NCBI GenBank assembly: GCA_000091165.1
Contig: FP565575.1
Coordinates: 1,890,001 to 1,922,000, forward strand
Source: Candidatus Methylomirabilis oxygeniifera
GTDB taxonomy: Bacteria > Methylomirabilota > Methylomirabilia > Methylomirabilales > Methylomirabilaceae
Direction: 5' to 3'
Length of the DNA: 32,000 bases
Positions 6,011-32,000 of this stretch are shown here, in pieces. The position numbers and the translations under genes were made by a program. The notes beneath the pieces were generated by a model. It ran no database searches and was not told where the DNA came from. It saw only the letters and a list, made by a program, of their open reading frames with translations. Numbering within the stretch: position 1 is the stretch's first letter; each line of letters begins with the position of its first letter.

Positions 6011-7261
6011 ATGAAACGTGTTGTTGTCATTGGAGCGGGTGCGGCGGGGACTATGGCCGCGATCTTTGCGGCCTCCAGCGGCGCCGAGACGCGGCTCCTC
6101 GAGCGCACGAATGACGGCGGACGCAAAATTCTCATCAGCGGGGGCGGCCGGTGCAACATTCTGCCGGCCGTCGTTCATGAGTCTCGCTTCGTCACCGATT
6201 CTTCACCTCACACCCTTCGAAAGATGCTCCGCTCCTGGCCGCTAAGCGAGCAGATCGCGTTCTTCGAAGGCAAAGCCGGGATCCCCCTGATGGAAGAAAG
6301 GGAGTCGGCGAAGCTGTTTCCACAATCCGAAAGCGCGCGCGATGTTCGCGACAGGCTGCTGGCGCTCGCGCGCGCCAGAGGCGTCGTGATCGAGACCGGC
6401 GCGTTGGTCACCGGCCTTGTCCCGGCCGGCAACGGCTGGCAGATCGAACGACGCGGAGGATCATCCCTGCAGGCCGATGCCGTCGTTGTTGCCACAGGCG
6501 GCCTCTCCTTTCCCGGTACGGGAAGCGATGGCCTCGGGCTTCGCATCATCAAGACGCTGGGGCATACGATCAACCGAACCTACCCGGCGCTGACCCCGCT
6601 GACGGCGACGGTCCGGCGAAAGCCGGGCACGACCGGTGGCGCGCCGTTCGCCGCGCTTTCAGGCATTTCGCTGCCGGTCACGCTGACCGCCCGCGCAGGA
6701 ACCTTGGAGTCCACATCGACAGGAGGATTTCTTTTCACCCACCACGGCTACAGCGGGCCCGCCGTGCTCGATGTGTCTCATGTCGCGGTACGCTCACGCG
6801 CCGAGATGGACGCTCCCGCGCGTCTCGTTGTACGATGGACGTCATTGAACGATAAGGATTGGGAATCGGTTTTCGGTTCGCGCGGTTCTCGAACGGTGCT
6901 GAACGCTGTGGCGGCTCAGTTACCGCGTCGACTCGCCGAAGCGCTGATCGATTTCGCCAGGATTGATATTCGCCGAACACTCTCGCAACTGACCCGTGAC
7001 GAGCGGCTCCGTCTCATCGACATCCTCGTACGATGCGAACTGCCGTGGTCGGGAGATGAGGGGTACGGGAAGGCCGAAGTCACCGGCGGTGGTGTGTGTC
7101 TGTCGGAGATCGATCCGAAGACTTTGGAAAGCAAGATTCACAAGGGTCTGTTTCTGTGCGGCGAGATACTCGACGCCTTCGGACCGATCGGCGGCTACAA
7201 CTTTCTCTGGGCGTGGGCGACCGGGCGCGCCGCCGGCCTTGGCGCCTCACGCACGCACTAG
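6011..7261 (+). CDS. NAD(P)/FAD-dependent oxidoreductase, HI0933 (BaiN-like) flavoprotein family
   Basis: 416 aa with the VVVIGAGAAG Rossmann motif, GGGRCN, and C-terminal GEILD..G.IGGYNF.WAW.TG. Confidence 0.85.
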   Translation: MKRVVVIGAGAAGTMAAIFAASSGAETRLLERTNDGGRKILISGGGRCNILPAVVHESRFVTDSSPHTLRKMLRSWPLSEQIAFFEGKAGIPLMEERESAKLFPQSESARDVRDRLLALARARGVVIETGALVTGLVPAGNGWQIERRGGSSLQADAVVVATGGLSFPGTGSDGLGLRIIKTLGHTINRTYPALTPLTATVRRKPGTTGGAPFAALSGISLPVTLTARAGTLESTSTGGFLFTHHGYSGPAVLDVSHVAVRSRAEMDAPARLVVRWTSLNDKDWESVFGSRGSRTVLNAVAAQLPRRLAEALIDFARIDIRRTLSQLTRDERLRLIDILVRCELPWSGDEGYGKAEVTGGGVCLSEIDPKTLESKIHKGLFLCGEILDAFGPIGGYNFLWAWATGRAAGLGASRTH

Positions 7262-7306: not shown

Positions 7307-9214
7307 ATGGCTCTTATTACACTCGATCATGTCTCCATCGCGTACGGACACGTCCCGCTGCTCGACGATGCCAGCCTGCAGGTCGAAGCCGGCGAACGTG
7401 TGTGCGTGATCGGCCGGAACGGCACCGGCAAATCCACATTGCTTCAGATCCTTAGCGGAGATCAGACCCCCGACAGCGGTTCGGTGTGGCGACAGCCTGA
7501 GATTGGGGTCGCGCGGCTTGTGCAGGACGTTCCCCTGTCGTCCAATCGCCCTGTGTTCGACGTCGTCGCGGAAGGGCTGGGCAACCTCGGCGAGTTGGTG
7601 GCCGCCTACCATCACGCGGCGGTGGATGTGGCCGAACGAGGCACCGACATCTCGCTCGACAAGCTGGGCAGGCTGCAGCGCGAGCTCGAAGAGCGGGACG
7701 GTTGGCGCCTCGAACAGCGCGTGGAAATCGTCCTCGATCGTCTGGGTCTCCCGGCCGAGGCCATCGTCGACAGCTTGTCAGGAGGCTGGCGGCGGCGCGT
7801 GCTGCTGGCGAGGGCGCTGGTGGCCCAACCGCAACTCCTCCTGCTCGACGAGCCTACCAACCATCTCGACATCGACGCGATGATCTGGCTCGAAGAGTTT
7901 CTCAAGACGTACGCAGGTGCGGTGGTATTTGTCACCCACGACCGGGTGTTTCTCCAGAATCTGGCAACACGGATCGTAGAGCTGGATCGCGGCACACTGA
8001 CGTCGTGGCCGGGCGACTACGCGACCTTTCTCCGCAGGAAGGAAGAATGGCTTGCGAGTGAGGCGGCGCAGAACGCCACGTTCGACAAGCGGCTCGCTGA
8101 GGAAGAGGTGTGGCTTCGCCAGGGTATCAAGGCGCGGCGGACGCGGGATGAGGGCCGGGTTCGCGCGCTGCTGGCCATGCGACAAGAGCGGGCCGCACGG
8201 CGCGCGCAGGTCGGTAATGTTTGTCTGCAGGCCGAGATCGGCGAGCGCTCGGGTCGGCTCGTATTCGAGGCCGTCGGTATCTCGAAATCGTTCGGCGACA
8301 AGCCCGTCGTCCGCGATCTGTCGTTACGCGTGATGCGCGGGGATCGTGTGGGGTTGATCGGTCCGAACGGATCGGGTAAGACGACCCTGCTTCGACTGTT
8401 GATCGGCGAACTCACGCCCGACACGGGCAACGTGAAGCGCGGCGCCAACGTTCAGGTGGCGTATTACGACCAGCAGCGCGAGCAGCTCGATCCCCAGCGC
8501 ACGGTATTTGACACGGTCGGCGATGGAAACGACACGGTCACGGTGAACGGCCGCACGCGGCACGTCCACGGATACCTCCGCGATTTTCTGTTTCCACCTG
8601 AGCGTGCGTACGCCCGGGTTCAGACACTGTCTGGCGGTGAGCGAAATCGCCTGGTGCTGGCACGCCTGTTCACGCAACCCGCCAATGTCCTCGTCCTTGA
8701 TGAGCCCACAAATGATCTCGATATCGAGACGCTGGAATTGCTTGAATCGTATCTCATCGAGTGGCCGGGAACGCTGCTGCTCGTCAGCCACGATCGCGCG
8801 TTCATCGATCACGTCGTCACGAGTACGCTCGTCTTCGAAGGTGGCGGACAGGTGCAGGAGTACGTCGGTGGATACGAGGACTGGCTGCGGCAGCGCGGCA
8901 CCAGGGAAACAGCGACCAAGGCGCAGCCGGAGAGGACGGTACGCCCTGCGCAACCGCCCGTGACGGTGGCGACCAGAAAGAAACCGACCTATCGCGAGCA
9001 AAGGGAACTCGAGCAGCTTCCGGCGCAGATCGAAGCCCTGGAATGCGAGCACGCGCAATTGACCGCCTCGATCACAGACCCCCTCTTTTACCGGCAACCG
9101 GCCGATTCGATCACGCAGGCGCTCGCGCGCCTCGATGCGCTGGCACGCGAGCTTCACGACGCCTACACTCGCTGGGACGAACTTGATTCCCGCATTACGC
9201 GCGAACGTGTGTGA
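7307..9214 (+). CDS. uup: ABC-F family ATPase Uup
   Basis: 635 aa with two ABC cassettes (GRNGTGKST / LSGGWRRR / LLLLDEPTNHLD and GPNGSGKTT / LSGGERNR / VLVLDEPTNDLD) plus a C-terminal coiled-coil tail. Confidence 0.9.
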   Translation: MALITLDHVSIAYGHVPLLDDASLQVEAGERVCVIGRNGTGKSTLLQILSGDQTPDSGSVWRQPEIGVARLVQDVPLSSNRPVFDVVAEGLGNLGELVAAYHHAAVDVAERGTDISLDKLGRLQRELEERDGWRLEQRVEIVLDRLGLPAEAIVDSLSGGWRRRVLLARALVAQPQLLLLDEPTNHLDIDAMIWLEEFLKTYAGAVVFVTHDRVFLQNLATRIVELDRGTLTSWPGDYATFLRRKEEWLASEAAQNATFDKRLAEEEVWLRQGIKARRTRDEGRVRALLAMRQERAARRAQVGNVCLQAEIGERSGRLVFEAVGISKSFGDKPVVRDLSLRVMRGDRVGLIGPNGSGKTTLLRLLIGELTPDTGNVKRGANVQVAYYDQQREQLDPQRTVFDTVGDGNDTVTVNGRTRHVHGYLRDFLFPPERAYARVQTLSGGERNRLVLARLFTQPANVLVLDEPTNDLDIETLELLESYLIEWPGTLLLVSHDRAFIDHVVTSTLVFEGGGQVQEYVGGYEDWLRQRGTRETATKAQPERTVRPAQPPVTVATRKKPTYREQRELEQLPAQIEALECEHAQLTASITDPLFYRQPADSITQALARLDALARELHDAYTRWDELDSRITRERV

Positions 9215-13605: not shown

Positions 13606-13771
13606 GAAAACCCCCTTAATCCCCCTTTGCGAAAGGGGGAGGCAAGGAAGCGCATCAGTAATACCCTCCCCTTAAGAAATGGGGAGGCACGGACGCGTAT
13701 CAGGAATATCCCCCCATTTTTGAAAGGGGGGTTAGGGGGGTTTGTCTGAAGCTGACGCCTGATAGCTGAAG
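13606..13771. repeat. modular composite of three hairpin repeat units abutting the tRNA-Met 3' end
   Basis: Module 1 is at 13606-13658, a related module 2 at 13659-13704, and the terminal module at 13705-13771 (CCCCCCATTTTTGAAAGGGGGG-TTAGGGGGGTTTGTCTGAAGCTGA...GATAGCTGAAG). Modules 1 and 3 are homologous to 18530-18658. Confidence 0.75.
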
Positions 13772-24949: not shown

Positions 24950-25159
24950 ATGAAGTTTCTCGTAGTCTTAGAAGTTGGGGAGGATGGCTACATCGTGGCG
25001 GAGTGCCCCGCCTTGCCGGGTTGCGTCTCTCAGGGGCGAACCGAGGAGGAAGCTCTGGCGAACATCCGGGAGGCGATCCAGGGAATTGTGGCAGTTCGAC
25101 AGAAACACGGCCTTCCGATCCCCGAGGAGCGCGTGGTCGAGATCGCGGTCCCGGCCTAG
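24950..25159 (+). CDS. hicB: HicB family antitoxin (UPF0150 fold only, no DNA-binding tail)
   Basis: 69 aa. YIVAECPALPGCVSQGRTEEEALANIREAI is the HicB N-terminal domain pattern. GAAGGAA ribosome-binding site. Confidence 0.85.
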   Translation: MKFLVVLEVGEDGYIVAECPALPGCVSQGRTEEEALANIREAIQGIVAVRQKHGLPIPEERVVEIAVPA

Positions 25160-25335
25160 TGGCGAAGCTCCCGGTCATTTCAGGTCGGGAAGCAGGGAAG
25201 GCGTTCGCCAAGCTCAACTTTGTGTACGATCACCACCGAGGCTCTCACATGATCTACTATCACCCATCTGGCCGTCACCTCTCCATCCCGGACCACAACG
25301 AACTAGACAGAGGAACCCTCCGCAAGCTCATTTGA
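25159..25335 (+). CDS. hicA: HicA toxin, truncated by a premature opal codon (probable pseudogene or attenuated toxin)
   Basis: The GTG start overlaps the hicB stop (TAGTG). VAKLPVISGREAGKAFAKLNFVYDHHRGSHMIYYHPSGRHLSIPDHNELDRGTLRKLI is followed by TGA at 25333-25335. The same frame continues YAGITVEEFLALLQDS-TAA, which is the normal HicA C-terminal helix. Confidence 0.7.
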   Translation: MAKLPVISGREAGKAFAKLNFVYDHHRGSHMIYYHPSGRHLSIPDHNELDRGTLRKLI

Positions 25336-25386
25336 TACGCTGGGATCACGGTGGAAGAATTCCTCGCGCTTCTTCAAGATTCCTAA

Positions 25387-25488
25387 TCCCCTACCTTCTC
25401 TCGGATCGAGCATAACGCGAGCGATGCCACCATCGAAACGCTGCTCAAGGTGGCACGAGTCCTCGAGCCTCTCTCGACTTCGAGGTGA
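25387..25488 (+). pseudogene. possible remnant of an XRE-family HTH protein C-terminus
   Basis: FSRIEHNASDATIETLLKVARVLE resembles the recognition-helix end of HTH_3 domains. There is no start codon and no N-terminal helices. Confidence 0.3.
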
Positions 25489-25551
25489 AAGCGGACAGTA
25501 GGCTATAAACCAGACAGTTACGGCCTCTACCTCGACTGAATCCAGATCATA

Positions 25552-25764
25552 CCACCGCTGCTCTCAGAGGGTCTCCCATTCCTCGGGACTCAAGTGGGCT
25601 TGGCGCAGGATGGATCGTAGGGTGGGAACGGCAATGTCGCGGGAGTGGATCGGCACGGTGACCTTTCGGTTATCCGGGTGGACATAACGGGCATGGCTCC
25701 CGGTCTGCCTGCGCAGTTGAAAGCCTGCTGCTTCTAGTTTGCGGATAACTTCCCTTGGCCGAAG
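25552..25764. repeat. 213-bp duplicated segment, copy 1 (hicA body plus 12 nt of 3' flank)
   Basis: Identical to 27880-28092 except for 3 T/C transitions, by hand alignment. Confidence 0.9.
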
Positions 25765-25779
25765 CGGGCTAAGCGGCAT
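25564..25779 (-). CDS. hicA: HicA family toxin
   Basis: 71 aa. REVIRKLEAAGFQLRRQTGSHARYVHPDNRKVTVPIHSRDIAVPTLRSILRQAHLSPEEW. It overlaps the upstream hicB by 11 nt. Confidence 0.85.
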   Translation of the reverse strand: MPLSPLRPREVIRKLEAAGFQLRRQTGSHARYVHPDNRKVTVPIHSRDIAVPTLRSILRQAHLSPEEWETL

Positions 25780-26026
25780 GGGCGGGAAGCTTCACATGAA
25801 CGTAGAACCCCTCTTCCCCTTCTTCGCCTGGCGGGACAGGCTCACCCTCTTCCTGAAGGCACTCCACGTGAAAGGCGACCATTGTCTTGATATTCGTCAG
25901 GGCCTCTTGCACGTCCGCTCCCTGGTCGGCAATGCCAAGGGCTGGCACCTCCGCCACCACACTGCCCGTCTCCGGATCCTTTGTCACCAGGACGCGATAT
26001 TGCAGGATTGCTGCTACACTCATCAT
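25769..26026 (-). CDS. hicB: HicB family antitoxin
   Basis: The start is trimmed to ATG 26026 (MMSVAAILQYRVLVTKDPETGSVVAEVPALGIADQGADVQEALTNIKTMVAFHVECLQEEGEPVP). The track's longer ORF runs into the integrase remnant. Confidence 0.8.
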   Translation of the reverse strand: MMSVAAILQYRVLVTKDPETGSVVAEVPALGIADQGADVQEALTNIKTMVAFHVECLQEEGEPVPPGEEGEEGFYVHVKLPAHAA

Positions 26027-26100
26027 CCCCCCCCTCTCACTCCTCACCGATTCAAGTAAAGAGTCTACCAGCGTCGCTTCCGGGTGGCAACCACCTTCCG

Positions 26101-26295
26101 TCAACCGCTCCACCGCGCCCGCAGGTGGGTCGCCTTCTTGATGGCCAGCTTGCGCTTCTGGTGGAAGTCTCGAGCGACTGACTTCGCCGTCCCGATCCGT
26201 TCCCGGTGCCGATGCCCGTAGGAACACACCTACCGCACCCACCAGAGCCCGTCACGTTGAAACAGCCCTCGATCTACACCGCCTTTGCGTGCCAT
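26101..26295 (-). pseudogene. N-terminal remnant of a tyrosine recombinase/phage-type integrase with an in-frame TAG
   Basis: ATG 26295: MARKGGVDRGLFQRDGLWWVR-TAG(26230-26232)-VCSYGHRHRERIGTAKSVARDFHQKRKLAIKK.... The G.WW.RY...G.R.RE..G..K..A....KRK..I pattern is typical of integrase arm/N-terminal domains. The catalytic domain is absent. Confidence 0.55.
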
Positions 26296-26301
26296 CTTTG
26301 C

Positions 26302-26712
26302 TCACCTGCGGGGGCGGGGATCGGTCGCGGCTGGGTAGCAATCAAAAGAAACAGTCATCGCGAATCCATCGTCTCCACTGACAGAATAGAGAGAACTCCC
26401 CTCCCTGTATTCGACCACCATCGGGGGAGGGTTTTTACCTGGATGTTTCCTCGTGAGATCTTCCTCGTCTTCTCTCGCAAATTCCACGGCAATCCGGGCG
26501 AAGCCCTTAGCCAATTTCTTGCATTCGGCTAAATTGGTTGTCGAGCTTTGGATTTCCCATGAGTCCGCCTCGTATGGACGATCATGAAGATACAACTCCG
26601 TCTTTTTCCACACGACCCATCCATTCCCTTCTTCTTTCGCCCACAACCTTCCTCCAAAGAAGCCGACAGCAACGGCAAGCGCAATACCCCAGACGAGAGC
26701 GAGTCGCTTCAT
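26302..26712 (-). CDS. hypothetical secreted protein
   Basis: 136 aa with a signal-like N-terminus MKRLALVWGIALAVAVGFFGGRLWA. No family was recognised. Confidence 0.5.
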   Translation of the reverse strand: MKRLALVWGIALAVAVGFFGGRLWAKEEGNGWVVWKKTELYLHDRPYEADSWEIQSSTTNLAECKKLAKGFARIAVEFAREDEEDLTRKHPGKNPPPMVVEYREGSSLYSVSGDDGFAMTVSFDCYPAATDPRPRR

Positions 26713-26767
26713 CGTATTAGCCCCCCACGCTGCATACTCGTGTTTCTCTCTGGCTAACCCAGGTTTC

Positions 26768-27025
26768 TTAGCGGGCTAAGTGTTCTTTCACCTGTATCCG
26801 CAATAGGGTGGTATAGCTTAAGCCCTTCGCCTCTGCCATCGCCTCGATCTTGGTAATGTCCCCGGGATCAAGGCGAATGTTGATCGCCCGCTTCGGTCGC
26901 CTGACAAACCGGATGCCAGCTTCGGCCGTCTCCTGGGCATGCTCCGCGAAGCTGTGAGTGTCCCAGTACGCCGCCGCCTCTCGATCTGTCGGGAGTGATG
27001 GAATTCGTTTCACCTGTTTCTTCAT
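26768..27025 (-). CDS. BrnA/CopG-type antitoxin family protein
   Basis: 85 aa. EAAAYWDTHSFAEH ... KRAINIRLDPGDITKIEAMAEAKGLSYTTLLRIQVKEHL matches the CopG-antitoxin/BrnA pattern. It starts 15 nt after the relE stop codon. Confidence 0.7.
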   Translation of the reverse strand: MKKQVKRIPSLPTDREAAAYWDTHSFAEHAQETAEAGIRFVRRPKRAINIRLDPGDITKIEAMAEAKGLSYTTLLRIQVKEHLAR

Positions 27026-27040
27026 TTGCCACGCCTCGCG

Positions 27041-27295
27041 CTATAATCCTCGGTAGACCTCCCGCCGGTGTTTGATTCTCAGGACCTCCACCGTACGCGC
27101 CTTGTCGTCGATATCGTGAAGCACCCTGATATCCCCAACCCGTATCCGCCATGCCCCCGTGCTGAGCTTAACGCAGCCCTTAGGCCGAAGGGTCCCGGTC
27201 AGGGATGCGAGAGCCTCGCGCACCCTCACCCAGGTATCACCTATGAGCCTGTCCAGGTCTTTCTGCGCTCTAGGACCGAGTAGCAGCCGGTACAC
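27041..27295 (-). CDS. RelE/ParE family toxin
   Basis: 84 aa (GTG start). AQKDLDRL ... RVREALASL ... RPKGCVKLSTGAWRIRVGDIRVLHDIDDKARTVEVLRIKHRREVY is the ParE_toxin pattern. Confidence 0.8.
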   Translation of the reverse strand: MYRLLLGPRAQKDLDRLIGDTWVRVREALASLTGTLRPKGCVKLSTGAWRIRVGDIRVLHDIDDKARTVEVLRIKHRREVYRGL

Positions 27296-27548
27296 GCTTT
27301 TTCCGCTTGGTTAGGTAGGCGTCCAGGCTGATCCGCTCTCCAGGGGCCTGACGCGCCTCGACGGCGTCCATCGCGTCCTGTAAGTCTTCCAACTCCTCCA
27401 GCAGGCGGTTGTAGGCGTCAAGGCTCAGCAGGACCGCTGCCCCTTTGCCGTGCTGAGTGAGAATGGCCGGGCCTTTCTCCAGTGCCGCCAAGACCTCCGC
27501 TTGGCGTTTCCTCAATTCAGAGATGGGAATCACCTCGTTGATCCGCAT
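27270..27548 (-). CDS. Phd/YefM family antitoxin
   Basis: The start is trimmed to ATG 27548 (AAGGAG upstream). MRINEVIPISELRKRQAEVLAALEKGPAILTQHGKGAAVLLSLDAYNRLLEELEDLQD. It overlaps the relE start. Confidence 0.8.
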   Translation of the reverse strand: MRINEVIPISELRKRQAEVLAALEKGPAILTQHGKGAAVLLSLDAYNRLLEELEDLQDAMDAVEARQAPGERISLDAYLTKRKKRVPAATRS

Positions 27549-27563
27549 ACACAGCTCTCCTTG

Positions 27564-27624
27564 TGGAAGCAATACATGGTCTTCAAATGCTACCAAATAT
27601 ACAGCGAGGGTATTTGAGCGTCAA
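27564..27624 (-). promoter_or_regulatory. promoter and operator-like inverted repeat of the phd-relE operon
   Basis: On the minus strand: TTGACG (27619-27624), a 17-nt spacer, and TATATT (27596-27601). The inverted repeat TGGAAGCA (27564-27571) / TGCTACCA (27588-27595), 7 of 8 complementary, lies between the -10 and the ribosome-binding site. Confidence 0.5.
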
Positions 27625-27735
27625 GCGATGTCACAAAGACAATTCAAAGGGAAGCTAAGTAAAACTCATGGCAGGGGAGGGGAAGCAATCGCCAAAGCTA
27701 ACCCCAAAGCCCACAGTTTTACGGAGATGTGAGAC

Positions 27736-27770
27736 TAGTGGCCGAGACGTGCGGGGTCGAATCCACCTAC
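27736..27770 (-). other. degenerate partial copy of the tRNA-Sec 3' end (att-like direct repeat)
   Basis: tagtggccgagacgtgcggggtcgaatccacctac aligns with 29253-29288 (tggtggcggaggcgtgtgggggtcgaacccaccaac). There are 29 matches, 6 mismatches and 1 gap, in the same orientation as the tRNA. Confidence 0.5.
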
Positions 27771-27879
27771 GTCATTTCCTCAAGTAATTCCACTCGGTTC
27801 AGAGCCAGTGGATTCCCGGTCACGGTCTGGGTCACGGTTTCACGCCCGGCTTCCACCGTTCGCCCGTCACTCACGTGTT

Positions 27880-28092
27880 CCACCGCTGCTCTCAGAGGGT
27901 CTCCCATTCCTCGGGACTCAAGTGGGCTTGGCGCAGGATGGATCGTAGGGTGGGAACGGCAATGTCGCGGGAGTGGATCGGCACGGTGACCTTTCGGTTA
28001 TCCGGGTGGACATAACGGGCATGGCTCCCGGTCTGCCTGCGCAGTCGAAAGCCTGCTGCTTCTAGTCTGCGGATAACCTCCCTTGGCCGAAG
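27880..28092. repeat. 213-bp duplicated segment, copy 2
   Basis: See 25552-25764. The three differences are at 28046 (C versus T), 28067 (C versus T) and 28078 (C versus T). Confidence 0.9.
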
Positions 28093-28257
28093 GTTGAGCA
28101 CCACCTTCCGGCCAATTCTTCGCGCTGGCAACCCGACCCGTGCCCGCAACCGCCGATTTTCCAGGCTCCTGGGGCTTGCCTTAACCTCCTCCCGTTGAAC
28201 CGTTTCGTCCACCGAAATGATTTTTGTCACGAGACCCCCCTTTCTTGTCCGTACCAT
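27892..28257 (-). CDS. HicA-domain protein with a novel ~55-aa N-terminal extension (no adjacent hicB)
   Basis: 121 aa. The C-terminal 66 aa are the duplicated HicA (2 substitutions, K->R and Q->R). The N-terminus MVRTRKGGLVTKIISVDETVQREEVKASPRSLENRRLRARVGLPARRIGRKVVLN was not recognised. An alternative GTG start (VTKIIS...) follows AAAGGGGGG. Confidence 0.55.
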   Translation of the reverse strand: MVRTRKGGLVTKIISVDETVQREEVKASPRSLENRRLRARVGLPARRIGRKVVLNLRPREVIRRLEAAGFRLRRQTGSHARYVHPDNRKVTVPIHSRDIAVPTLRSILRQAHLSPEEWETL

Positions 28258-29453: not shown

Positions 29454-29798
29454 CTATGCCGGATGCCAACTGAGGGACCGCCCACCCAACAGGTGAACGT
29501 GCAGGTGATAGACTGCCTGCCCACCCTCACTGTTACAATTGATTACCAGTCGAAAACCCCGATCCGCAATCCCGATCTGCCTTGTGATCCGGTTCGCCAC
29601 CAACAGGAGGTGGCCCAGCAGCCGATCATCAGCCTGGTTCGCATCGAGGATGGTCGCGAGGTGTTGACGGGGAACAATCAAGATGTGGATAGGGGCCTTC
29701 GGGTGAATGTCTTCGAAAGCTACCGACTGCTCGTCCTCATACACAATCTTCCCCGGACGTTCACCATTGGCTATCTGACAAAAGAGACAGGTATCCAC
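29454..29798 (-). CDS. HIT family (histidine triad nucleotide-binding) protein
   Basis: 114 aa. CLFCQI..GE ... HILIVPR.H ... GGQAVYHLHVHLLGG. Confidence 0.9.
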   Translation of the reverse strand: MDTCLFCQIANGERPGKIVYEDEQSVAFEDIHPKAPIHILIVPRQHLATILDANQADDRLLGHLLLVANRITRQIGIADRGFRLVINCNSEGGQAVYHLHVHLLGGRSLSWHPA

Positions 29799-29807
29799 AC
29801 CCTCGTC

Positions 29808-30503
29808 CTATCGATATTCCGCCTTGCTCTTTTTCCCGTAGCGCTTGCGCAGTTCCCGAGCTACCTCTGACGGCGCGATCCCGTGATACCCCAGCAGGAC
29901 CAGCGCGTGAAACCAGAGATCGGCGGCTTCGTAGACAATCTCCCCCGAGTCCCCATTCTTGGAGGCCACCACCAACTCGGTCGCCTCTTCGCCGACCTTC
30001 TTGAGGATCTGATCTTGACCTTTGGCGAACAACCCTGAGACATACGAATCCGGCTGTGGCCTCGCCTGTCGATCCTTGATAACCTCGAAGATCTGTTGGA
30101 GAATCGCAAGGCTCCCGCCGTAGACCGCCTCCGGATCGAACTGCTGTCGCGCTAACTCCTCCGGCACCTCTGAGTCCGGATGCAGGCGACGGAAAAAACA
30201 GGACCGTCGACCGGTATGGCAAGCCGCCACTACCTGCTCGGCCTTGACCAGCAGGGTATCCTCATCGCAGTCGACATAGATCTCGCGCACGCGCTGAATG
30301 TGGCCGGACTCCTCCCCCTTTTGCCAGATGCGCTGCCTCGATCGGCTATAAAAATGGGTAAGACCGGTCTCGACGGTCAGTCGCAGCGACTCTTCATTCA
30401 TGTAGGCAAGGGTCAGGACCTGGCCGCTCTCAGCATCCTGTACAATGGCCGGGATCAGCCCCGATGCATCGAACCGAATTTGCGCACGATCGAATCGCTC
30501 CAT
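29808..30503 (-). CDS. hisI: bifunctional phosphoribosyl-AMP cyclohydrolase / phosphoribosyl-ATP pyrophosphatase HisIE
   Basis: 231 aa. The HisI part is GLIPAIVQD...[10 protein letters not shown]...[18 protein letters not shown]....I..DCD.D.LL..V....ACHTG..SCF. The HisE part is SY...L...G...I.KK.GEEA.E......N.......E.ADL.FH..VLL. Confidence 0.9.
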
Positions 30504-30509
30504 AGCCCT

Positions 30510-31349
30510 TTAATCCCGCACCGGGACGCCACGGCCACGCAGGTACGCCTTCGCATCCTGGATTGCGTATTCACGGAAATGAAAGATTGAGGCAGCCAGC
30601 GCAGCGTCAGCCCTCCCTTTCACCAATGCCTCATACAGATGATCCAGCGTACCAGCGCCTCCCGAAGCGATGACCGGGATCGTCACGGCATCTGCTACTG
30701 CGCGAGTGAGGGCCAGATCGTAGCCATCCTTCGTCCCATCTCTGTCCATGCTGGTCAGCAGGATCTCCCCGGCCCCGAGCGCCTCCCCTTGCTTCGCCCA
30801 CCCGACAGCATCAAGTCCGGTCGGGGTCCGTCCACCATGAGTGTAGACCTGCCAGCGCGGAGCGCCGGATGGGGTGTGGGGTGTGGGGTGTGGGGTGTGG
30901 GGACCTGCTACCTCAACACTCGACACTTGACACTTGACACTATCACTGACCCGTTTCGCATCGATGGCGAGGACAATGCACTGGCTTCCGAACCGCATGG
31001 CGGCCTCAGTAAGCAGTTCCGGGCGCTCGACGGCCGCCGTGTTCAGCGAGACCTTGTCGGCGCCTGCGAGCAGCAGCGTTCGAATATCCTCTACCACCCG
31101 GACTCCACCACCAACGGTGAGGGGGGTAAAGGTCATCTCGGCCGTTCGACGGACCACATCAAGTAAGATGTCCCGCCGCTCATAGGAGGCGGTGATGTCG
31201 AGAAAGACCAGCTCGTCAGCTCCCTGTTGGTCATACAGCGCCGCCACCTCGGCCGGATCGCCCGCGTCGCGGAGATCTACAAACCGCGTCCCTTTCACGA
31301 CACGCCCGTCTTTCACATCCAGACATGGGATGATCCGCTTTGCCAGCAT
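30510..31349 (-). CDS. hisF: imidazole glycerol phosphate synthase cyclase subunit HisF, with a ~25-aa low-complexity insertion
   Basis: [21 protein letters not shown]...RDAGDP...A..Y...[12 protein letters not shown] ... GADKVS.NTAAV ... [17 protein letters not shown]. At 279 aa it is longer than the ~255 aa I recall as typical. The extra segment is [30 protein letters not shown]. Confidence 0.9.
30871..30950. repeat. two adjacent heptanucleotide tandem arrays inside hisF
   Basis: (GGGGTGT)4GGGG at 30871-30902 on the + strand. Degenerate (CACTTGA)n at 30917-30950: cactcga cacttga cacttga cactatc actgac. Confidence 0.9.
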
Positions 31350-31352
31350 GAT

Positions 31353-32000
31353 TTATTTTGCCGCCGCAATCGCTTCGTTCAGTGAGAATCTACCCTCGTA
31401 CAGGGCCTTCCCGACCAGGGCACCAATGACGATAGTGGGTTCAAGCGTCGCGACTCGCCTGAGATCGTCGAGTGTGGCAATCCCTCCGGACGCGATGATC
31501 GGGTGGCGGGCCGCCTGAGCCATTTGTTGCAACGCGCCCAGATTCGGTCCCGTGAGCATCCCGTCTCGCTCGATATCGGTATAGATAATCGCTGCCAGCG
31601 GAAGATCGGCCGCTCGTATCGCCAGATCGGCCGCGAGCAGCTCGGTGGCCTCCACCCAACCCCGTACCGCAACCTTCCCGTTTTTCGCATCGATTCCGAG
31701 CAGTACGCGACCGGGATAGCGATGGGCAGCCTCCCTCAAGAATCCCTCATCCTGGATGGCAGCCGTCCCAATGACGGCTCGCTCGATGCCGGAGGCAAAC
31801 GCCTGCTCCAAGGCAGCTAGATTCCGTAATCCGCCACCAAGCTGCACAGGAATCTTGATCGATCGGGCCACTTGGGCAACAACGGAAAGCTGCTGCGGCG
31901 TTCCGGCAAAGGCGCCGTCAAGATCGACCACGTGCAGAATCGGCGCCCCTTCATCCTCCCACCTCTTGGCCATAGCGACCGGGTCGGCGGAATAGGCGGT
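31353..32000 (-). CDS. hisA: HisA (ProFAR isomerase), 5' end beyond the window
   Basis: The frame stays open to position 32000 (…[32 protein letters not shown] ... GGGLR ... IIASGGI). The track's M at 31973 is internal. The stop codon lies 3 nt before the hisF ATG. Confidence 0.9.

Follow-up and report, generated by a model that had tools for sequence, protein, structure and literature searches.

Many bacteria contain an excess of heptanucleotide tandem repeats, whose origin and role are unexplained. We discuss here a tractable case, namely two arrays of 7-nt units lying in frame inside hisF, the gene for the cyclase subunit of imidazole glycerol phosphate synthase, in Candidatus Methylomirabilis oxyfera (listed as Candidatus Methylomirabilis oxygeniifera, assembly GCA_000091165.1). 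The stretch of DNA analyzed, which we call the window, covers 32,000 nt of contig FP565575.1 (positions 1,890,001 to 1,922,000, forward strand). Cyanobacteria reportedly harbor short tandemly repeated repetitive (STRR) sequences, heptanucleotide repeats said to have been described by Mazel et al. in 1990, and Rickettsia is said to carry the Rickettsia palindromic elements (RPE) reported by Ogata et al. in 2000. In Xanthomonas and Nostoc, the G-rich heptamers GGGAATC and GGGGA(C/T)T show a preference for four units and form G-quadruplexes (G4) in vitro, with no function found (Rehm et al. 2015, PMC4692102). The TAACTGA direct repeats of Beggiatoaceae are common to distant phyla, and their function is likewise unknown (MacGregor 2015, PMC4679880).

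The hisF element resembles the Xanthomonas/Nostoc heptamers and the STRR sequences in being built of tandem 7-nt units in about four to five copies, in an apparent spread over many loci, and in the variation between close relatives; inverted pairs may also occur, and units rich in G conform to the G4 consensus. Those repeats, however, are mainly intergenic and under-represented in open reading frames (ORFs), whereas the hisF element is translated and sits at the same site across relatives; moreover, the host belongs to NC10, and most units in relatives are not G-rich. The TAACTGA repeats immediately precede start codons and are for the most part direct, unlike the hisF-type arrays, which usually come in inverted pairs. 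With RPE, the element shares that it is short, dispersed, hairpin-capable in some relatives, and translated in frame within housekeeping genes at fold-compatible surface sites. RPE are nevertheless non-tandem palindromes of 100-150 bp with a conserved sequence, whereas the heptamer arrays measure 60-140 nt and are barely palindromic in M. oxyfera; because of this difference in architecture, no sequence homology to RPE families is expected. Simple sequence repeat (SSR) contingency loci of Haemophilus, Neisseria, and Campylobacter also have a unit inside an ORF that is not a multiple of three, so that slippage by one unit causes a frameshift, but these have numerous units, are positioned close to the 5' end of surface or restriction-modification genes, and display alleles out of frame within populations, none of which was seen in hisF. 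Finally, the array pairs found in operon junctions of relatives (hisB-hisH, murA-hisG) are reminiscent of the repetitive extragenic palindromic (REP) sequences and bacterial interspersed mosaic elements (BIME) of enterobacteria, although REPs are not tandem heptamers. A literature search returned no description of heptamer arrays in Methylomirabilis/NC10 or inside hisF. We consider it likely that the feature in the window represents one copy of a dispersed heptamer-array element, a copy that is in frame, evolves fast, and is tolerated.

The gene itself (30510..31349, minus strand) has an intact ORF of 279 aa, matching TIGR00735 over residues 1-278 with 382.2 bits (cut-off 294.55), and its product has the same sequence (100% identity) as the HisF protein of Candidatus Methylomirabilis oxyfera (phylum NC10). 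The hypervariable segment comprises codons 133-165 (RVSDS...SGAPR; 30855..30953, minus strand) and lies in the loop between beta-5 and the beta-hairpin preceding helix alpha-5. It counts 33 residues against the 8 (RIDNSAER) of insert-free orthologs, a surplus of 75 nt. In gene orientation, the 5' arm (arm 1, 30912..30948) appears on the plus strand as a degenerate (ACACTYG)n array and encodes 10 residues. Tandem Repeats Finder (TRF) delimits it at 30912-30941 (4.3 copies, 91% matches), from where it decays to about 30948; the coding strand reads AGTGTCA twice, then AGTGTCG and AGTGTTG (unit AGTGTCR). The 3' arm (arm 2, 30870..30902) is T(GGGGTGT)4GGGG on the plus strand and (CCCCACA)n on the coding strand, encodes 11 residues, and is reported by TRF with period 7, 4.7 copies, 100% matches, and a score of 66. 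The arm 1 unit matches the reverse complement of the arm 2 unit at 5/7 positions. Between the arms lies a spacer (30903..30911, ACCTGCTAC on the plus strand) of 9 nt by the TRF limits or 14 nt by the limits of an earlier, sequence-only reading of this DNA; the corresponding gap is 3-43 nt in relatives. The arrays are far beyond chance: a search for the array pattern with up to 3 mismatches gave 3 overlapping matches against 0.06 expected in shuffles, and no other arrays of period 4 to 11 passed a periodicity scan of the 32-kb window.

Much of what the sequence-only reading had described stands. The TRF figures bear out its two in-frame heptamer arrays inside hisF; the insert peptide sits between KRV and RWQVYTHGG, exactly as it said; the surplus it put at about 25 codons is exactly 25 relative to the insert-free close orthologs of 254 aa; and the five G4 tracts with 3-nt (TGT) loops, on the template strand of hisF, are present. 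It also rightly foresaw that a change of one unit would shift the frame: computed on hisF, gain or loss of one or two units leads to a stop at 174-202 aa, and gain or loss of three stays in frame. As for the array limits, (GGGGTGT)4GGGG was correct, but the second array, placed at 30917-30950, runs from 30912 to 30941 before its decay.

Comparative evidence comes from the same loop in relatives. We used alignments of 50 homologs and of the best 120 homologs, measuring the segment between AIDAK and W166. These homologs belong to Methylomirabilis/NC10 where the source names them; the metagenome contigs are mostly unclassified, and one homolog bears a Patescibacteria label. Among the best 120 homologs the loop segment ranges from 7 to 54 residues, and the cores are highly conserved (0-23% divergent). 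Proteins whose cores differ by a mere 1.6-4.7% from the window protein (segment masked) carry segments of 8, 13, 18, 29, 33, or 37 residues, the shortest of these being the RIDNSAER of the insert-free 254-aa proteins. At the DNA level, eleven ortholog loci were compared. Locus L001 (87% DNA identity) has the same left arm and total length as the window but carries (CCCTCCA)4.4 in place of (CCCCACA)4.7, all right-arm units having changed in concert. The hisF site holds (CCCCCAA)4.7 in L011, a degenerate CCCACAC array without a left arm in L002, and AGTTTCG-type units followed by (ACCCGAA)4.6 in L007 (M. lanthanidiphila). In L009, GTTCCAG arrays are followed by their inverted complement (GGAACYC arrays), and in L010, GTTCACA arrays are likewise followed by their complement; L004 is insert-free.

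A further 80 metagenome hisF loci were found at 63-82% identity. For periodicity we took 30 insert-bearing hisF loci (7 assembly loci, window included, and 23 metagenomic ones), and in 26 of them lag 7 gave the top autocorrelation, with a mean of 0.49 versus 0.23-0.29 for other lags. Heptamer arrays recur at this site across lineages whose HisF proteins are 63-92% identical, and their turnover, much more rapid than that of the remaining gene, affects length and unit sequence and extends to the loss of an arm or of the whole insert. This rapid turnover implies a raised indel rate at the hisF array. Apparent giant hisF inserts (metagenome matches of 1.1-1.2 kb) were ruled out, as these are tblastn matches extending into the paralogous hisA.

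Relatives also reveal how the two arms belong together. Over 25 neighboring array pairs in the pooled loci, the mean inverted-complement match is 5.2/7 versus 3.4/7 for random pairs, and 20 of the 25 reach at least 5/7, as against 12.6% of random pairs. The hisF inserts of L009 and L010 fold as strong RNA hairpins (z -5.0 and -6.1, respectively), within a range at the hisF site that spans -6 to +1.4. The left arm of the window is homologous to the left arms of L001 and L007. The window insert itself folds into GUGU/ACAC blocks of four base pairs in a 7-nt register, and a comparison of the insert with Rfam gave no match at E up to 1.

Beyond hisF, the same kind of repeat is found at other loci. 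TRF on 706 kb of hisF-bearing loci returned period 7 as the commonest (147 of 631 rows; periods 6 and 8 account for 38 and 73 rows, respectively). For M. oxyfera we examined about 41 kb, consisting of the 32-kb window and 10 kb upstream of the window end taken from a same-strain assembly (L215), whose overlap with the window is identical. This DNA contains four heptamer elements, the one in hisF included. About 8-9 kb past the 3' end of the window, the annotated 5' end of prmC (L215:1402-1466) carries (GAAGCGC)3.6 and (ACACCCC)4.0, the latter being read as 12 residues; translation of either array requires ATG 1381 to be the genuine start. Further into prmC, the linker between the PrmC_N and methyltransferase domains (L215:1786-1842) holds (AGTGTCA)2.3 followed by (CAACACT)4.3, in frame and read as SVKCQGSETQHSTLNTRHSQ. 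The fourth element, (GAGTGTC)4.4, is intergenic and lies in the murA-hisG spacer. The units in prmC and in the murA-hisG spacer (ACACCCC; AGTGTCA/GAGTGTC) are the same as those of the two hisF arms.

The prmC linker is a second conserved in-frame hot spot, as arrays occur there in three lineages: L137 has AGTTCCG/AACCCGG units in frame at the same site (L137:2818-2917), and L147 has (CCCCAGC)4.6 (L147:2884-2915). Locus L137 bears array pairs at the murA-hisG junction, the hisB-hisH junction, the hisD C-terminal tail, and the prmC interdomain linker, with up to 6 elements per 16 kb. In some relatives, inverted heptamer pairs occupy most his operon junctions (L137:4713-4789, 6739-6813, 7898-7927, and 8551-8623; L009:17-120), and nearly the whole hisB-hisH spacer is one inverted heptamer-array pair. 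Elements lie in frame at fold-compatible sites of unrelated genes, namely the HisF loop, the PrmC linker, and the HisD C-terminal tail (L137). Array copy numbers in relatives range from 3 to 10. Units at different loci of the same genome are more alike (4.91/7) than units of different genomes (4.10/7).

From these observations a scenario can be drawn. The two arrays in hisF would be the arms of one small repeat element, each of about four to five tandem 7-nt units, in a family whose members usually consist of an array followed by its approximate inverted complement and are dispersed in M. oxyfera and in its hisF-bearing relatives. Such elements would settle in intercistronic spacers and also inside genes where the protein tolerates them. 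Within an arm, arrays would change through replication slippage and homogenization, and because hisF is needed, frameshifted products would be eliminated by selection. The right arm may have started as the complement (ACACTCG), from which ACACCCC would have arisen by drift in the window and ACCCTCC in L001. In M. oxyfera, the drift of this 3' arm to CCCCACA would have weakened the hairpin and created the template-strand G4 motif as a by-product. Overall, the element would be tolerated rather than useful.

Critically speaking, several points weigh against this reading. The inversion in the window is weak, since its arms match at 5/7 positions, a value reached by 12.6% of random pairs; the RNA fold of the window insert is no better than that of shuffles (z +0.39), and a repeat finder with seed 6 reports no inverted repeat in the window copy. 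A hairpin as a present-day feature of the window allele was therefore rejected, and the hairpin origin rests on the relatives. The excess in unit similarity within genomes is modest and may partly reflect base composition. Dispersal throughout the M. oxyfera genome is extrapolated from 4 elements within 10 kb; the periodicity scan gave no other array in the 32-kb window, and no transposition signature (terminal repeats, target duplications) was identified. That the loop is neutral is something we infer. Lastly, in assembly GCA_009026205.1 a contig (WBTX01000028.1) with exactly the same hisF 5' part as the window breaks off after 2.6 units of the (CCCCACA) array (L216:1941-1965), which may be a k-mer artefact or may hint at copy-number heterogeneity.

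Alternatives to a dispersed element concern either the origin of the arrays or their use. A purely local origin, in which the arrays grew at a permissive site by in situ slippage on native hisF sequence (AGT GAT AGT G) and are unrelated to arrays elsewhere, finds some ground in the native codons AGTGATAGTG, which the left array abuts and which contain AGTG twice, in the lack of other arrays in the window, and in the general tolerance of HisF for indels at this site (the E. coli protein being presumably longer at this loop as well). We nonetheless deem it unlikely, given that prmC and the murA-hisG spacer of this genome hold identical units (AGTGTCA, ACACCCC), that array pairs occupy other gene junctions in relatives, and that the arrays of a pair are inverted complements of each other, an arrangement not generated by simple slippage. 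The arrays might also act in cis: a G4 in the template, or else a hairpin or i-motif formed by the coding strand or the messenger RNA (mRNA), would pause polymerase or ribosomes or stabilize the mRNA, thereby tuning the distal his genes. The five GGGG runs and TGT loops indeed fit the G4 consensus (at least four runs of at least three G, loops of 1-7 nt) strongly, and with G-quadruplex terms the energy model gives the single-stranded plus strand -32.6 kcal/mol, compared with -4.8 kcal/mol without them. Suggestive, too, are the C-tract arrays of about 4-5 units at the hisF site of four lineages (window, L001, L002, L011), the related G-rich heptamers that form G4 in vitro (PMC4692102), and the array pairs that relatives carry at operon gene junctions, much as REP elements do. 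Yet such a role seems quite improbable: many close relatives are insert-free or have arrays free of G tracts (L004, L009, L010), the structure is not conserved (the RNA fold z values scatter from -6 to +1.4), no Rfam family matches, and Rehm et al. (PMC4692102) found no regulatory role. As many close relatives are insert-free or without G tracts, and as 4-5 copies are equally typical of AT-rich units, the G4 motif is probably a by-product of a C-rich unit variant, and the four-unit preference of G4-forming repeats may not stem from G4 formation.

With regard to use, the most striking proposal of the sequence-only reading was that of a contingency locus, where gain or loss of a single 7-nt unit toggles hisF in the population. 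A unit length that is not a multiple of three, truncation at 174-202 aa upon a change of one or two units, a site length that changes fast over evolutionary time, and the single metagenome-assembled contig stopping within the array all speak for it. The remaining evidence does not support it, and we hold it to be very improbable. The array has just 4.7 units and lies mid-gene (codons 150-160 of 279) in a biosynthetic enzyme whose core is under strong purifying selection, with ratios of nonsynonymous to synonymous substitution (dN/dS) of 0.03-0.06 for orthologs versus the window gene; together with the intact ORF, these ratios indicate that hisF is a working, strongly constrained gene with an indel hotspot in its loop. 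Three independently made assemblies of the strain (ENA ERZ24907703, Logan SRR023516, and Logan ERR13927253) agree on all 840 nt of the gene. Wherever an ortholog was read as DNA, its frame is kept and no frameshift is present, and a search of 5.8 billion protein clusters with both possible frameshift tails found no such protein: 14 candidates came up, and the single one that scored is a 155-aa partial HisF from GCA_009026205.1 whose contig ends inside the array. Rehm et al. (PMC4692102), moreover, considered phase variation unlikely for the GGGAATC and GGGGA(C/T)T repeats. On the simplest reading, two thirds of slippage events are lethal to a prototroph and are purged, making the array a liability rather than a switch. 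The fallback offered by the sequence-only reading, a tolerated loop expansion grown by slippage, comes close to the evidence, but the dispersed element with two arms was not foreseen; the ortholog alignment it had proposed shows hypervariable loops, with heptamer arrays of differing units and, in some cases, no insert. The last alternative is an adaptive loop, i.e., a Pro/Thr/His-rich peptide with a function of its own such as partner binding or gating of the active-site face. From the known geometry of such barrels, the loop lies on the catalytic side, and HisH docks on the opposite one. It emerges a few residues past the catalytic Asp130, and its frame is always kept. Still, its sequence, length, and even presence vary between near-identical cores, and the peptide is a mere translation of whichever heptamer is present: a 7-nt unit is read in all three frames, giving a 7-residue period (e.g., PHTPHPT), so that the odd composition is explained without any function. 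Using the 50-sequence alignment, AlphaFold2 returned a confident (beta-alpha)8 barrel (predicted template modeling score, pTM, 0.83) in which beta-5 spans 125-133 and the hairpin 166-180, and in which residues 136-161 lack secondary structure at a predicted local distance difference test (pLDDT) below 50; the insert is thus predicted to be a disordered surface loop, and we give an adaptive role hardly any credence.

Two further candidates were rejected. An assembly artefact is ruled out by the agreement of the three independent assemblies and by relatives with the same architecture. Translational bypass of a hairpin insert (cf. T4 gene 60 and the yeast mitochondrial byps) is ruled out as well, every variant being stop-free and of a length that is a multiple of 3.

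A broader and more doubtful proposition builds on the dispersed element. The inverted heptamer pairs could form a distinct dispersed class in Methylomirabilota and other uncultured lineages, with units kept alike per genome by an active process, such as a dedicated mechanism of insertion or slippage, gene conversion, or a heptamer-reading protein that acts in trans. Its members would be retained in frame where housekeeping genes offer fixed permissive positions (HisF loop 5, PrmC linker), and G-rich variants on the template strand would act on operon transcription or replication. The natural hisF alleles, with no insert, one arm, two arms, or different units, record the expansion, homogenization, and decay of arrays under a strict frame constraint, and they illustrate that essential genes can harbor repeats of this heptamer class, in a manner similar to RPE in Rickettsia. 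Annotators may take a warning from them: low-complexity inserts in conserved proteins (e.g., PHTPHPT) may be translated repeat DNA rather than functional motifs. Unless a G4 effect or a trans-acting factor should emerge, the locus is of modest importance in practice.

Outside the phylum, (GGGGTGT)n arrays are common in cyanobacteria. A search of genome contigs with this repeat matched at least 120 loci, 78 of the 120 listed being cyanobacterial as counted from record titles, and TRF on the matching loci listed at least 138 arrays of 2-23 copies, 90 of which have 3-5; several adjoin an inverted partner. Some heptamer units seem to be common to several phyla. Arrays of TTGGTCA, which we take to be the unit of cyanobacterial STRR2, occur in hisF-bearing metagenome contigs (L147:11382-11411, L138:11313-11365, L142:1352-1385, and L158:480-510). 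AACTGAT (the TAACTGA of MacGregor 2015) is frequent in cyanobacterial loci. In the pooled loci, copy numbers cluster around 4.1-4.9 for units that are not G-rich too, the lower bound being partly set by the TRF score threshold.

Turning to the setting of the gene, hisF lies in the operon order hisA (31353-31973), hisF, hisIE (29808-30503), and HIT (29454-29798). The catalytic aspartates D11 and D130 are invariant in the homolog alignment. Solved HisF structures match the window protein at 1e-80 to 1e-105 in two blocks, residues 1-135 and 165-278; it follows from this split that the extra segment replaces a few residues between beta-5, with the catalytic Asp130, and the beta-hairpin. Past the window end, in M. 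oxyfera, an opposite-strand DUF4189 gene and a 78-aa ORF separate hisH from hisA (L215:8294-9274). In L002, the ORF directly before hisA (L002:565-774) has a weak GATase match and may be the remnant of a hisH 3' end after an insertion. Downstream of the his genes, the window holds a cluster of small toxin-antitoxin genes (HicA, Phd/YefM-ParE, CopG, HicB-like) at about 24950-28230 (L215:13120-16400). Elsewhere in the window, at 13631-13715, a 45-nt tandem duplication (1.9 copies, 82%) contains G5 and C7 runs (GAAAGGGGGAGGCAAGG...CCCCCCCTTAA) and is followed by (AGGGGGGTT)2 at 13725-13742.

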